A stretch of DNA of 64,000 nucleotides, taken from contig CAZTMA010000002.1 of assembly GCA_964614645.1 (NCBI GenBank), positions 19,119-83,118 on the forward strand. Direction: 5' to 3'. Source of the DNA: an uncultured Anaerolineales bacterium (GTDB taxonomy: Bacteria; Chloroflexota; Anaerolineae; CG2-30-64-16). Under the pieces are notes generated by a model, which was not told the origin of the DNA, made no database searches, and saw only the letters and a program-made list of their open reading frames with translations. This document shows, piece after piece, positions 32,852 to 37,047 of the stretch. The number at the start of each line of letters is the position of its first letter. The stretch's first letter is position 1. A program made the translations under genes and the position numbers.

Positions 32852-33697
32852 ATGAAGATCAGTAAGGCCGTCATCACTGCGGCCAGCCCGCGCCAGCGCC
32901 CTCTGCCCTTGCAGACGCTCGTGGACCGGGATGGTGTGCAGAAGTCCGTGCTGCGCATCGTGGTCGAGGAGGCGCTGCGCGCGGGCGTCGAGGAAATTGC
33001 CATCGTCGTGTGTCCCGGCGACGAGACGGCCTATGCAGGCGCCGCAGGTGATGTGGCCGCGCGGCTGACCTTCATCCCCCAGCCTGAGCCGCGCGGCTAC
33101 GGCCATGCCGTCTACTGCGCGCGCGAGTTCACCGGGCAGGAGCCCTTCCTGCACCTGGTGGGCGACCACCTGTGGGTGAGCCGGAACGGCCAGGGGTGCG
33201 CGGAGCAACTCGTCGAGGTGGCGGAGCGGGAAGCGTGCGCGGTCTCCGCGGTGCAGGCCTCGCGCGAGACCCTGCTGCCCTACTTCGGCGCGGTGGGTGG
33301 GCGGCGCGTGCCGGGACGGCAGGACCTCTACGTCATCGAGAATGTCCTGGAGAAGCCGACGCCGACCGAGGCGGAGCAGCATCTGCTCGTGCCCGGCCTG
33401 CGTGCGGGGCACTATCTCTGCTTCTTCGGCCTGCACGTGCTGACCGCGGGGGTCATGGACATCCTCGGCCGTGCCATCGCCGTGGGACAGGCGCACGTCA
33501 CGCTCTCGCAGGCGCTGGCCGGGCTGGCCGGCAAGGAGCGTTACCTGGCCCTGGAACGCCCCTGGTACCGGTATGATGTCGGCGTGCAGTACGGGCTGCT
33601 GACCGCGCAACTGGCGCTGGCGCTGGCCGGCAAGGATCGGGAGCACGTCCTGGCGCTGCTGCTGGAGCTCCTGGTGCAGCGTGAGACTGCCGGGTGA
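32852..33697 (+). CDS. GalU-like sugar-1-phosphate nucleotidyltransferase homologue with divergent N-terminal nucleotide-binding loop
   Basis: [18 protein letters not shown] sits where GalU has [28 protein letters not shown] resembles EPLGLGHAV. An extended -10 (TGATACAAT) lies at 32788-32796. Confidence 0.7.
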
Positions 33698-36600
33698 GGG
33701 GGCACGTGGCCGGACAACTCGTATCGATCATTACGTCAACCGACAGCGACGTGCGCAACTGCTCGGTGGACGCGTTCGCGCGCGGCGCGACGCGCGATGA
33801 GCTGCTGGCCGAGTGTGCGGAGCTGGATGCGTTCCGCCGCGCCAGCCACAACCTGTACGAGCGGGTGCGCGCGCTCTTTTTCCTGTACGCGATTCATCGG
33901 TTCCACCTGCCCGCGAAGGATGGCGTGGCCGCGCGCGGGTTCATCCCGTTCGACGGCTACACCTACCTGCTGCGGCGCCGGTTCGAGGAGGCGATCGACG
34001 TTTTCCTCAAGGCGCAGGCGGCCCAGAGGCCGAACGAGTCCGTGTCCAGCGCGCTGGCGGAGGCGTATCACCGCCTGGGCTTCCAGACGCTGGCCGACCA
34101 GGTGCGCCGCAGCGTGCGCTCGGTGCGCGGGAACCAGTGGATGTTCCGGCTCGGCCATCCGGCCGACCAACCGCTGCGCGTGCGGCCTGAGCTGCTGGCG
34201 CGAGCCTCGGACGATACGCCCTACCCGCTGCTGATGGAGGCCACGCCCGTGCGCATGGACCTGTCGCACAGCGCGTGGAGCGACATCTTCTTCCTGGGCA
34301 TGGACTTCCCGGAGGGCGCGCGCGTCCTCAATGTGTCCATCGACCTGGGGGTGCGCGGCCGCGACCCGGCTCCGCAGCCGCCGGTCGAGGCCTACTTTCG
34401 CGTCATCGACGAGCCCGTGCTGCGGCTGGCGAGCGTGGACCTGGCCGCGCGGGCCGAAATCACCAGCCTTGCGGAGGTCTTCGACTTCGCGCGTGACTAC
34501 CTCGGGCTGCTCAAGGCGGCGCTGATTGCCGCGGGCCTGATTCCGCCGGGCATGGAAGGCTCGGAGCAGGAGCTGGCCGACCTGCTGGCGCAGCTCGTGG
34601 GGCCGGGCCGGGGCATCGAGCTGGTCAGCAACGTCAACGGCATCCCGAAAGGGTCACGGCTGGCCGTGTCCACGAGCCTGCTGGCCGGCCTGATTGCGTG
34701 CTGCATGCGCGCGACCGGCCAGACCCACGCGCTGACCGGCGCGCTGACCGAGCCGGAGCGCCGCCTGGTGGCCGCGCGGGCCATCCTGGGCGAATGGCTG
34801 GCGGGTTCGGGCGGCGGCTGGCAGGATTCCGGCGGCGTGTGGCCCGGCATCAAGCTCATTACCGGCCAACTGGCCGGGCCGGACGACCCGGAATACGGCA
34901 TCAGCCGGGGACGGCTTCTGCCCGGCCACCGCATCTTCGGGCCGGCGGAAGTCACGCCGGAGACGCGGCAGGCGCTCCAGGACAGCCTCGTCCTGGTCCA
35001 CGGCGGCATGGCGCAGAACGTCGGCCCCATCCTCGAGATGGTGACCGAGAAGTACCTGCTGCGCTCCGAGGCGGAGTGGCTCGGGCGACAGGAGGCGTGC
35101 GTCGTGCTGGATGAGGTCGTGGCTGCACTGCAGGCGGGCGATGTGCAGCGCATCGGCGCGGTGACCACGCACAACTTCTTCGGCCCGATCCAGACCATCA
35201 TCCCGTGGGCCAGCAACCTGTATACCGAGCGGCTCATCGAGCGCGTGCGCGCGGAGTTCGGGCCGCAGTTCTGGGGCTTCTGGATGCTGGGCGGCATGTC
35301 CGGCGGGGGCATGGGCTTCATCTTCGATCCGCAGGTCAAGCCGCAGGCGCAGGCGCGGATGCAGGAGCTGATGTCCGCGGCGAAGCGCGAGGTGGAGGCC
35401 GCCTTGCCCTTTGCCATGGAGCCGGTCGTCTACGACTTCGCCATCAACGAGCGCGGCACGTTCGCGCGGCTGGCCGAGCCGGCCCTGCTGCCTGCGGGCT
35501 ACTATGCGCTCGTCGTGCCGGAGCTGGTGCGGCTGGACCGGCGGCAACTGCCGTCCTCGCGGCGCGCGGAGCTGGCCCTGTTCGCCGAGGCGTCGCGCAC
35601 CCGGCCCGAGCTTGCGGGCATGGTGCAGACGCTCTTCGACCGGCTGCTGCCGAGTGCGATGACGCGCGGTCCGGCCGGCTACAAGGGGGGCGCGCCGCTC
35701 GACGTGCTGCTGGCGGAGCACGGCTTCGACCGCGTGCAGCATGAGCAGATTCGCGCGGACCTCAAGGCAGGGCGCATCGGCCTGGCGCAGAACCGGCTGC
35801 CGGCCAACAGCGACATCCGCGATGTGCAGCCGGGCGATGTGTTCGATGCCTCCGAGGCCGCGGCGCAGCTTGCGCCCTACCGCGAGCGGGGCCTGGCCGC
35901 GCTGCGGTCAGGCGCGGTCGCGGTGGTGACGCTGGCAGGCGGCGTCGGCAGCCGGTGGACGCAGGGCGCGGGCGTGGTCAAGGCGCTGCATCCCTTCTGC
36001 AAGCTGGGCGGCAAGCACCGCAGCTTCATCGAGGTCCACTTGGCGAAGAGCCGCCGCGTCGCGCGGCTGCCCGGCGTCGATGCACCGCTGCCGCACGTCA
36101 TCACGACCAGCTATCTCACCCACGCGGCCATCGAAGGCTACCTTGCCGCGGAGAACCGCTACGGCTACACCGGGCCGCTCCACCTGTCACGGGGGCGGAA
36201 TATCGGGCTGCGCATGATCCCCATGGCGCGCGACCTCCGCTTTGCCTGGGAGGAGATGCCCCAGCAACTGCTGGACGAGCAGGCGCAGAAGGTGCGCGAC
36301 AGCCTGCATGCCGCGCTGATCGGCTGGGCGCAGCAGATGGGCGAAGGCAGCGACTACACGGACAACCTGCCGGACCAGTGCCTGCACCCGGTCGGCCATT
36401 GGTATGAAGTGCCGAACATGCTCAAGAACGGAGTGCTCGCGCGGCTGCTGGCGGACCATCCGAACCTGCAATACCTGATGCTCCACAACGTCGATGCGCT
36501 CGGCGCCGATGTGGAGCCCGGCGTGCTGGGGTGGGTCATCGAGCAGGGCGCGACCTTCACGGCGGAGGTCATCACGCGCTGCCTGGAGGATCGCGGGGGC

Positions 36601-37047
36601 GGCCTGGCCCGCGTGGATGGGCGCCTGCGGCTGCTCGAAGGACTGGCGATGCCGCACGAAGAGGACGAGTTTGGCCTCTCGTACTATAATTCCAATACGA
36701 GCTGGCTGCACATCGACCGGCTGCTGGCCGTGTTCGGCCTGACGCGGGCCGACCTGGCCGATGCGGAGAAGGTGGCCCAGGCGATGCGCGGCATTGCGGC
36801 GCGCATGCCGACCTACGTGACGCTCAAGGATGTCAAGAAGCGGTGGGGTCACGGGCAGGAGGACATCTTCCCGGTGGCGCAGTTCGAGAAGCTGTGGGGC
36901 GACATGACCGCGCTGCCCGACCTGGAGTGCCGGTTCATCGCGGTGCCGCGGCTGCGCGGGCAGAATCTCAAGGACCAGGCACAGCTCGACGGCTGGCTGC
37001 GCGATGGCTCGGCAGCCTACGTTGAGTCGTTGTGCGCGTGGGGCTGA
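33694..37047 (+). CDS. 1117-aa multidomain protein: N-terminal unknown domain, fucokinase-like GHMP kinase domain, UDP-sugar pyrophosphorylase (UDPGP-family)-like domain
   Basis: GTG 33694 overlaps the upstream TGA. GHMP-like motifs [28 protein letters not shown] and [21 protein letters not shown]-like [25 protein letters not shown]... Confidence 0.7.

Follow-up and report, generated by a model that had tools for sequence, protein, structure and literature searches.

The locus described here raises the question of what is made by a single bacterial protein that joins a sugar kinase to a nucleotidyltransferase, and whether both of its halves are enzymes. The gene lies in a 64,000-nucleotide stretch of DNA (the window) from an uncultured Anaerolineales bacterium (contig CAZTMA010000002.1, positions 19,119 to 83,118), and coordinates below are positions in the window unless a locus is named. 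One open reading frame (ORF) encodes, from N- to C-terminus, a helical domain, a GHMP kinase of the fucokinase/heptokinase type, a helical linker and a UDPGP domain resembling UDP-glucose pyrophosphorylase (UGPase). From its sequence, predicted fold and gene context, we consider the chances slightly better than even that the product is an active two-step enzyme converting a sugar to a UDP-sugar and working with a GalU-like subunit. As stated in a preliminary description of the locus, the frame at 33694-37047 on the + strand is uninterrupted and has 1117 codons counted from a GTG at 33694. A second GTG at 33706 has GAGGGGG just 5′ of it and gives a product of 1113 amino acids (aa). Because of this preceding sequence, and because 33706 agrees with the N-termini of homologues and with the start called for P0001 (1113 aa) in the database, we take it as the more likely start, and residues of the main protein are numbered from it. 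The G+C content is 71.7% at 34001-36000, in the first half of the ORF, versus about 65% in the flanks. The parts of the main protein are:

33706-37047, + strand: main ORF, 1113 aa (the alternative GTG 33694 gives 1117 aa)
33706-34215, + strand: N-terminal all-helical domain, aa 1-170 (AlphaFold2 helices H4-H138; predicted local distance difference test score, pLDDT, mostly 81-96)
34219-35475, + strand: GHMP kinase domain, fucokinase/heptokinase subfamily, aa 172-590 (profile, PDB and Foldseek matches)
35476-35661, + strand: clade-specific helical insertion in the inter-domain linker, aa 591-652 (AlphaFold2 helices H597-647)
35803-37044, + strand: UDPGP-family (UGPase-like) nucleotidyltransferase domain, aa 700-1113 (Pfam, profile and Foldseek matches)

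Profile searches agree, at a level well above chance, with the GHMP and UDPGP assignments made in the preliminary description, whose four sequence blocks were all found where it had placed them. On the main protein the Pfam UDPGP model (PF01704) scored 46 bits (cutoff 22, E 4e-12), and the NCBIfam FKP model (PRK13412) matched its kinase part only (aa 183-566, profile positions 613-954, E 6e-22). When the PDB was searched with the single sequence, the kinase of Bacteroides fragilis FKP (BfFKP) was found with E 7e-11 and eukaryotic UGPases with E 9e-8. A family profile made from 13 divergent members gave E values of 5e-27 for UGPase, 6e-21 for the FKP kinase, 1e-8 for UDP-N-acetylglucosamine pyrophosphorylase (UAP) and 2e-3 for UDP-sugar pyrophosphorylase (USP). 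Since UGPase outranks UAP and USP in these matches, the C-terminal domain is described as UGPase-like. Pfam detected no GFPP domain in the main protein; its transferase is instead C-terminal and of the UDPGP type.

The structure prediction and Foldseek comparison suggested earlier were also carried out. An AlphaFold2 model based on an 81-sequence alignment (pLDDT 76.7, predicted template modelling score 0.77) divides into four regions: residues 1-170 form a helical domain, 172-590 adopt a GHMP fold, about 597-690 make up a helical linker and 700-1113 are a transferase of the Rossmann type. The N-terminal stretch of about 170 residues, previously left unassigned, is now predicted to be all-helical. 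The model has the two-lobed GHMP fold, with template modelling (TM) scores of 0.82 to the kinase-only FKP entry, 0.80 to the heptokinase WcbL, 0.72 to mevalonate kinase and about 0.6 to galactokinase; those to AGX/UGP were about 0.5. Full-length FKP was the first match, with 579 aligned columns versus 436 for the kinase-only entry, and in the model part of the N-terminal helical domain may overlay the helical linker of FKP. Matches of this domain to tetratricopeptide-repeat-like proteins were faint in the family-profile search.

We then compared the kinase active site with that of BfFKP. In the latter enzyme Arg592 and Asp762, the general base, are the catalytic pair; a Glu751 mutant is inactive; Ser719 and Ser720 form a metal site; residues 712-720 are the phosphate loop; and Trp599, Asp601, Thr602 and Gln761 contact the sugar (PMC11982464). 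In the alignment from the PDB search these residues map, in the same order, to R183 and D374, E363, S322/T323, K315-T323 and W191/D193/I194/Q373. The corresponding stretches of the gene are:

34246-34293, + strand: PVR183...W191-S-D193, equivalents of FKP Arg592, Trp599 and Asp601 (alignment to FKP)
34642-34674, + strand: motif II variant, 11 aa, equivalent of FKP loop 712-720 (alignment to FKP)
34786-34836, + strand: E363 and GGGWQ373D374, equivalents of FKP Glu751, Gly759, Gln761 and Asp762 (invariant in the alignment of divergent members)
35284-35319, + strand: GHMP motif of the kinase domain (alignment)

R183, D193, S322, E363, Q373 and D374 are invariant in 13 sequences that are 29-56% identical to the window protein. 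Four of the five BfFKP sugar contacts are identical (W191, D193, Q373 and D374), the exception being Thr602, replaced by Ile194; most sugar-contact residues are also subfamily signatures common to heptokinases, and the substrate is not fixed by them. The Arg, Ala and Val substitutions noticed earlier in motif II are real: Gly715 corresponds to Arg318, Gly717 to Ala320 and Thr718 to Val321, with Ser719/Ser720 kept as Ser/Thr. Relative to P-x-G-S-G-L-G-S-S, three of nine positions differ and both Ser/Thr positions are kept, a pattern from which ATP binding cannot be read. A Gly to Ala change at one position of motif II occurs in active GHMP enzymes, e.g. diphosphomevalonate decarboxylase.

Three clades, here called main (that of the window protein), intermediate and sister, show how these residues vary. 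The Gly-rich GHMP motif III and the catalytic pair R183/D374 are kept in all clades, and R183 and D193 are invariant in all of them; W191 is replaced by Gly or Ala in the sister clade. The 11-residue motif II variant is nearly invariant across the main clade and is fixed by selection; ‘LAVST’ within it is a signature of the whole family, and Arg318 is restricted to the main and intermediate clades. Two covarying states of the active site can be distinguished, Trp191 with Arg318 (252 proteins, main and intermediate clades) versus Gly/Ala with Gly (22 proteins, belonging to the sister clade and to fusions with ROK kinases). Arg318 is thus clade-specific and covaries with the sugar-stacking Trp, a pattern pointing to a substrate-related change and not to decay. 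Median identities across phyla (80 genome loci) were 74% for the kinase, 69% for the UDPGP domain, 66% for the N-terminal domain, 63% for the partner and 60% for the linker. The kinase is thus the most conserved domain, the opposite of what is expected of a decaying pseudo-kinase. The preliminary description had called the P-loop degenerate and considered a pseudo-kinase scaffold; we rejected a pseudo-kinase as the main explanation because the FKP catalytic residues are all kept, the kinase evolves most slowly and motif II is fixed.

Judged by its motifs, the UDPGP domain also appears intact. The matching stretches are:

35932-35982, + strand: nucleotide-binding loop LAGGVGSRW...K759, aligning to UGPase LNGGLGTSM..GPK
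36385-36507, + strand: HPVGH898 and HNVDALGA motifs, matching UGPase PPGHGD and N-x-D-N-LGA
36943-36972, + strand: 10-aa motif ending in K1089, a probable match to UGPase VPRxRFLPVK

Motifs of the window protein align with PPGHGD, NADNLGA and DVKGGT of UGPase, and its YYNSNTSW aligns with FNTNN. Conserved features are the nucleotide-binding loop with its Lys, PPGH, NxDxLGA, DxxGG, (F/Y)N(T/S)N and a C-terminal Lys. The last of these, K1089, is invariant in all clades and, judging by motif resemblance, is the probable counterpart of the catalytic Lys in VPRxRFLPVK. The name ‘UTP--glucose-1-phosphate uridylyltransferase’ (EC 2.7.7.9) carried by such proteins is an automatic annotation; their nearest relatives are UGPases.

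A second nucleotidyltransferase is encoded directly upstream:

32852-33697, + strand: partner, divergent GalU-like nucleotidyltransferase, 281 aa (Pfam NTP_transferase, PDB matches)

The GTG at 33694 overlaps the stop codon of this gene, and the one at 33706 follows 9 nt after it. The partner matches Pfam NTP_transferase, and its best PDB matches are YngB and GalU (E 5e-20); against the GalU model TIGR01099 it scores 82.5 bits, below the cutoff of 326.8. Among the genome loci (L001-L084, nearly all of the main clade), 76 of 84 have the partner gene immediately upstream in the same orientation, and the two genes often overlap by 4 bp. Of the eight loci without a visible partner, five have too little upstream sequence; in the Verrucomicrobiota loci L051, L055 and L083 no partner was found in the retrieved locus DNA. 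All-against-all clustering of the ORFs from the 84 loci revealed no other conserved neighbour. In the window clade the partner and the main protein are produced together by translational coupling.

Using the residue roles established for YngB (PMC7961091), we mapped the partner’s active site. YngB Gln105, Gly110, Asp133, Glu191 and Lys192 are kept as Q77, G82, D105, E167 and K168; of these, the Gln and Gly contact uridine, the Asp binds Mg and the Glu-Lys pair belongs to the EKP motif. The glucose-binding Asp134 of YngB is replaced by an invariant His106, and the GxGTRxLPxTK loop has become G/S-x-x-Q-R...T, with the family consensus A-A-G-R-N-Q-R-x-L-P-L-Q-T. The partner would act either as a second nucleotidyltransferase whose sugar pocket differs or, like GalF, as a regulatory subunit. 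The main protein carries the 60-aa helical segment (aa 591-652) in 154 of 167 loci. For adjacency counts we also used a metagenome scan directed at the sister clade, which yielded mostly main-clade loci and about 10 divergent ones. The partner was adjacent in 124 of 131 loci with the linker insertion versus none of 11 without it, counts that are not phylogenetically independent. The insertion is a candidate docking site for the partner, with which the main protein probably forms a complex.

The distribution survey proposed in the preliminary description was run as well. A first homologue search gave at least 8000 matches, the best 120 of which are 72-95% identical to the window protein; the few of these 120 with a source name come from Chloroflexota and Armatimonadota. 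Clustering at 50% left 702 representatives at E ≤ 1e-30, with only about a dozen full-length clusters. When one genome per GTDB species was searched, at least 532 genomes from about eight phyla encoded a relative. The best 80 of these show 63-80% identity and belong to Chloroflexota, Verrucomicrobiota, Planctomycetota, Acidobacteriota, Armatimonadota, Bacteroidota, Myxococcota and others. Median identity was 69-73% within phyla versus 66.6% between phyla, and in 66 of 71 cases the nearest neighbour came from the same phylum. This pattern is consistent with old transfers that were followed by slow evolution and mostly vertical descent. Cultured carriers named among the matches include Litorilinea aerophila and a Haloferula strain. 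Existing names are automatic only, either ‘UTP--glucose-1-phosphate uridylyltransferase’ or ‘hypothetical’, and one JGI label lists both domains.

Further relatives were found in Sumerlaeota, Omnitrophota and the oxymonad Blattamonas nauphoetae. The Blattamonas protein P0148 (KAK2962578.1, 1292 aa) is a full-length homologue, 35% identical overall, with Ala at the Trp position, and was probably acquired by lateral transfer from bacteria. P0257 of Ca. Kaelpia imicola (Omnitrophota, 1246 aa) has the reversed order, with UDPGP at 109-481 and kinase at 732-1212, and no match to the N-terminal helical domain; both domain orders therefore occur in nature. P0442 (1348 aa) and P0464 (1360 aa) carry an extra PF01797 domain (Y1 / REP-element transposase, RayT-like), which may reflect a fusion or a gene-call artefact.

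Independent information on function came from the sister clade. Its members share about 31% identity with the window protein and 48-100% with each other, stem from Bacillota metagenome-assembled genomes, Saganbacteria and root and sediment metagenomes, and have neither partner nor linker insertion. In six independent loci they belong to a strictly conserved operon. Its first gene encodes a beta-phosphoglucomutase-family HAD hydrolase and its second a SIS_2 protein that matches the heptose isomerase GmhA best; the kinase-UDPGP gene comes third, and the fourth product, 750-830 aa long, is a processive GT2 glycosyltransferase, a relative of cellulose synthase and PgaC. In two of these loci (L166 and a contig of JGI 3300071358) a GH16 gene follows further downstream, after an unassigned ORF of about 446 aa. 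Sister-clade operons lie at:

L094, 1067-8374
L097, 1354-8356
L165, 5172-12667
L166, 5079-15226
L167, 63-7808

The fused gene is the sole kinase and the sole nucleotidyltransferase of this operon, and this argues independently for catalysis by both domains in the family. The operon copies the logic of nucleoside diphosphate (NDP)-heptose synthesis, with an isomerase, a C1-kinase acting on a sugar phosphate, a phosphatase and a nucleotidyltransferase. It looks like an undescribed NDP-sugar pathway that feeds a polysaccharide synthase, and the substrate of the sister clade is probably phosphorylated and different from that of the main clade.

The intermediate clade is 45-46% identical to the window protein and likewise lacks partner and insertion. 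In one locus an aldose 1-epimerase gene is directly upstream, which lends weak support to a free-sugar substrate, and in two loci a DUF362 protein is encoded downstream. The intermediate-clade neighbours are:

L132, 3960-4907 and 8202-9269
L112, 6148-6866

A ROK sugar kinase is fused to the kinase-UDPGP module in four giant proteins (P0145, P0159, P0273 and L085), two of which also carry an IMPase or HAD phosphatase. These fusions add Rosetta-stone support for a role of the module in sugar activation. Residues 1-535 of P0159 form a domain of about 530 aa that also heads some 118 giant proteins of Candidatus Omnitrophota (P0274-P0391; 45-76% identical) and has no Pfam match in the proteins scanned. 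These mosaics of 1.6-4.9 kaa contain varying combinations of sugar-metabolism domains, among them PGM, PGI, PFK, FBPase, CofD, NTP_transferase and UDPGP. About 120 Omnitrophota mosaics were at one stage counted as carriers of the module, a claim we withdrew when BLAST showed that 118 share only the unrelated N-terminal domain with P0159.

Taking these results together, we propose that the GHMP domain would phosphorylate the anomeric C1 hydroxyl of a sugar with ATP, and that the UGPase-like domain would join the resulting sugar-1-phosphate and an NTP, most likely UTP, to give an NDP-sugar and pyrophosphate (PPi). The enzyme of the window clade probably acts on a free, neutral sugar that it binds in much the same way as FKP binds L-fucose. 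The GalU-like subunit might serve in the complex as a second transferase, as a GalF-like regulator or as the reverse arm of a uridylyl-exchange cycle. The proposal starts from the observed architecture, the conservation of catalytic residues in both domains, the linkage to the partner and the distribution; from these we infer catalysis, the nucleotide used, the substrate and complex formation. A salvage enzyme, one of the two options of the preliminary description, remains the best reading once widened to salvage or activation of a sugar.

Several points weigh against a two-step enzyme. The Arg in place of Gly715 of the phosphate loop has no characterised precedent that we can cite, and it could alter or block ATP binding. 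The FKP model scores only 77 bits against a curated cutoff of 721, and the GHMP_kinases_N/C models remain below significance in a Pfam scan of the main protein. No conserved glycosyltransferase that could consume the product is found beside main-clade genes in the 84 loci. The operon evidence stems from a clade that is about 31% identical and has Gly/Gly instead of Trp/Arg. The need for two pyrophosphorylase-type proteins is left unexplained, as is an identity of 63-80% across phyla, which is unusually high for a salvage enzyme. Each of the three rival explanations considered next, however, fits fewer of the observations.

The rival that survives best, although we think it unlikely, is a regulated housekeeping UGPase, in which only the UDPGP domain would be catalytic, making UDP-glucose from glucose-1-phosphate, while the kinase-like domain and the partner would be pseudo-enzymes for ligand sensing or scaffolding, as GalF is to GalU. 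The UDPGP domain is indeed nearest to true UGPases, the database name says the same, and very high conservation fits a core function. The Arg, Ala and Val substitutions of the P-loop could be read in this way, and so could the non-canonical G-loop of the partner, which is reminiscent of that of GalF. Pseudo-enzymes, however, usually lose their catalytic residues, and in this kinase all of them are invariant across clades, among them the Asp that serves as general base and the Glu and Ser that bind Mg. The kinase is also the best conserved of the domains, and the sister-clade operon has no other kinase to feed its pathway.

An Isselbacher-type exchange appears improbable. Here the kinase and UDPGP domains would make the UDP-derivative of a sugar X while the partner ran UDP-glucose + PPi to glucose-1-phosphate + UTP, so that PPi and UTP would be recycled in one complex and, with an epimerase located elsewhere, sugar X would enter glycolysis without GalT. 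Such a scheme explains why two unrelated pyrophosphorylase folds are co-inherited and translationally coupled, and why the partner keeps its uridine, Mg and diphosphate residues while its sugar pocket and PPi loop are changed. The lack of a linked glycosyltransferase in the main clade also suits catabolism better than glycan synthesis. On the other hand, the scheme is inference throughout, main-clade genes have no linked epimerase, the altered G-loop of the partner may equally mean low activity, and the sister clade clearly feeds a GT2 enzyme in an anabolic role.

We give a similarly small chance to a sugar-phosphate kinase like HddA/WcbL, which acts on heptose-7-phosphate. The product would be a sugar-1,n-bisphosphate, e.g. 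glucose-1,6-bisphosphate, and an unlinked phosphatase would be needed before nucleotidyl transfer, resulting in a UDP-sugar route without phosphomutase. The sugar-phosphate isomerase and HAD phosphatase of the sister-clade operons, the existence of ROK, IMPase and HAD fusions, the close structural neighbour WcbL and the extra basic residues Lys315 and Arg318 in the phosphate loop all fit such a kinase. Yet isomerase (SIS) and HAD phosphatase genes are absent beside the window gene and from the 84 genome loci, nearly all of which are main-clade. Furthermore, the main clade keeps the FKP-like Trp platform and pocket, and it is exactly the clade whose context indicates a phosphorylated substrate that has lost this platform and is missing Arg318.

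That the ORF is an assembly or sequencing artefact fusing two neighbouring genes, as its unusual length alone might suggest and as the preliminary description had kept in mind, is next to impossible: collinear full-length ORFs of about 1100 aa occur in more than 500 species genomes and in hundreds of metagenome contigs from independent projects, and the inter-domain linker itself is kept, with the median identity of 60% across phyla given above.

If the two-step enzyme is active, it would provide a one-protein route from sugar to UDP-sugar, useful in chemo-enzymatic synthesis as FKP is for GDP-fucose. It would also correct the annotation of thousands of genes and add an unrecognised step to the way in which abundant polysaccharide degraders of soil and freshwater metabolise carbohydrates. 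Testable hypotheses of a new heteromeric enzyme and a new NDP-sugar pathway follow from the partner and the sister-clade operon. A broader proposal has two separate elements: an obligate hetero-complex of an anomeric kinase with the unrelated UDPGP and GalU-like pyrophosphorylase folds, which would activate a sugar so far not known in UDP-linked form or perform GalT-free uridylyl exchange between two sugar-1-phosphates, and a new four-step, mutase-independent UDP-sugar pathway of the sister clade feeding a processive GT2 polysaccharide synthase. We regard this combination as possible and rather doubtful. If true, the sister-clade pathway of isomerase, C1-kinase, phosphatase and UDPGP would be a UDP-linked analogue of NDP-heptose synthesis.

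The remaining surroundings of the gene are as follows:

37086-37652, + strand: THEP1-like NTPase_1 gene, downstream of the main ORF
37898-39568, + strand: glucose-6-phosphate dehydrogenase gene, downstream of the main ORF
28618-32331, - strand: respiratory complex I genes, divergent, upstream
31684-32331, - strand: NuoB-like gene
29844-31619, - strand: fused NuoC/D
28618-29832, - strand: 4Fe-4S ferredoxin-domain protein

The order of the NTPase_1 and glucose-6-phosphate dehydrogenase genes is linked to the main gene only in close relatives; L001 has it and adds a 6-phosphogluconolactonase-like gene, and the order does not recur in other loci. No Rfam family was found in the window. A promoter and terminator scan gave nothing above chance, and a terminator-like hairpin at 33859 falls inside the ORF.

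Among known systems, FKP and its plant counterpart FKGP are the most similar. The FKP kinase is the closest relative in both sequence and structure, the catalytic Arg, Asp, Glu, Gln and Asp are common to both, and both systems would use a kinase step followed by a pyrophosphorylase step. In BfFKP, Arabidopsis FKGP (AtFKGP) and zebrafish GKUP a short pyrophosphorylase of the NTP_transferase type is N-terminal (PMC11982464, PMC3938481). The preliminary description had called the domain order of the window protein reversed. This holds for the single polypeptide in comparison with BfFKP, AtFKGP and GKUP; when the partner is counted, however, the order becomes NTP-transferase, helical region, kinase. 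Partner, helical N-terminal domain and kinase thus repeat the order of FKP, and a split FKP-like unit to which a UDPGP domain has been added at the C-terminus is the more apt description. The preliminary claim of a different transferase family was correct, since FKP has a GFPP-type NTP_transferase with a beta-helix, fused N-terminally, whereas the window protein has a UDPGP-type domain. In addition, motif II of the window protein departs at three positions, and the score against the FKP model (77 versus 721) puts the protein outside the FKP equivalog. A paper on FKP phylogeny does not mention UDP-type fusions.

In the salvage pathways of plants and trypanosomatids, separate GHMP sugar-1-kinases are followed by USP, a member of the UDPGP family (PMC3659416, PMC6329318). 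The same two families act in the same order, and the window protein looks like a covalent fusion of such a pathway; the separate kinases are galacto-, arabino-, glucurono- and galacturonic acid (GalA) kinase. Unlike these separate polypeptides, the window family is fused, bacterial and accompanied by a GalU-like partner, and its UDPGP domain is nearer to UGPase (5e-27) than to USP (2e-3). Zebrafish DrGKUP, a glucuronokinase that is also a putative pyrophosphorylase for UDP-glucuronic acid, naturally fuses a GHMP sugar-1-kinase to a UTP-dependent pyrophosphorylase (PMC3938481), but in it a short NTP_transferase of the bacterial type is N-terminal, the kinase is C-terminal and a UDPGP domain is absent.

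The pathway to GDP-D-glycero-alpha-D-manno-heptose (GmhA, HddA/WcbL, GmhB and HddC) shares a GHMP subfamily with the window protein, as HddA/WcbL has the GGGWQD motif, and its steps are copied by the isomerase, kinase, HAD phosphatase and nucleotidyltransferase of the sister clade. In contrast, the window clade is without linked isomerase or phosphatase, its transferase is fused and of the UDPGP type, and the sister-clade HAD protein belongs to the beta-phosphoglucomutase family and not to GmhB. GalU, the UGPase of bacteria, and GalF, a GalU paralogue of low activity, resemble the partner in fold, in the uridine-binding Gln and Gly, in the Mg-binding Asp and in the EKP lysine, whereas the partner falls far below the GalU cutoff, has an invariant His in place of the glucose-binding Asp and is tied to an 1100-aa protein.

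A literature search, with subscription-only papers outside its reach, found no description of the kinase-UDPGP architecture. The main protein is a member of the UDPGP family and lies outside the FKP equivalog, with a GHMP fold and a variant motif II.

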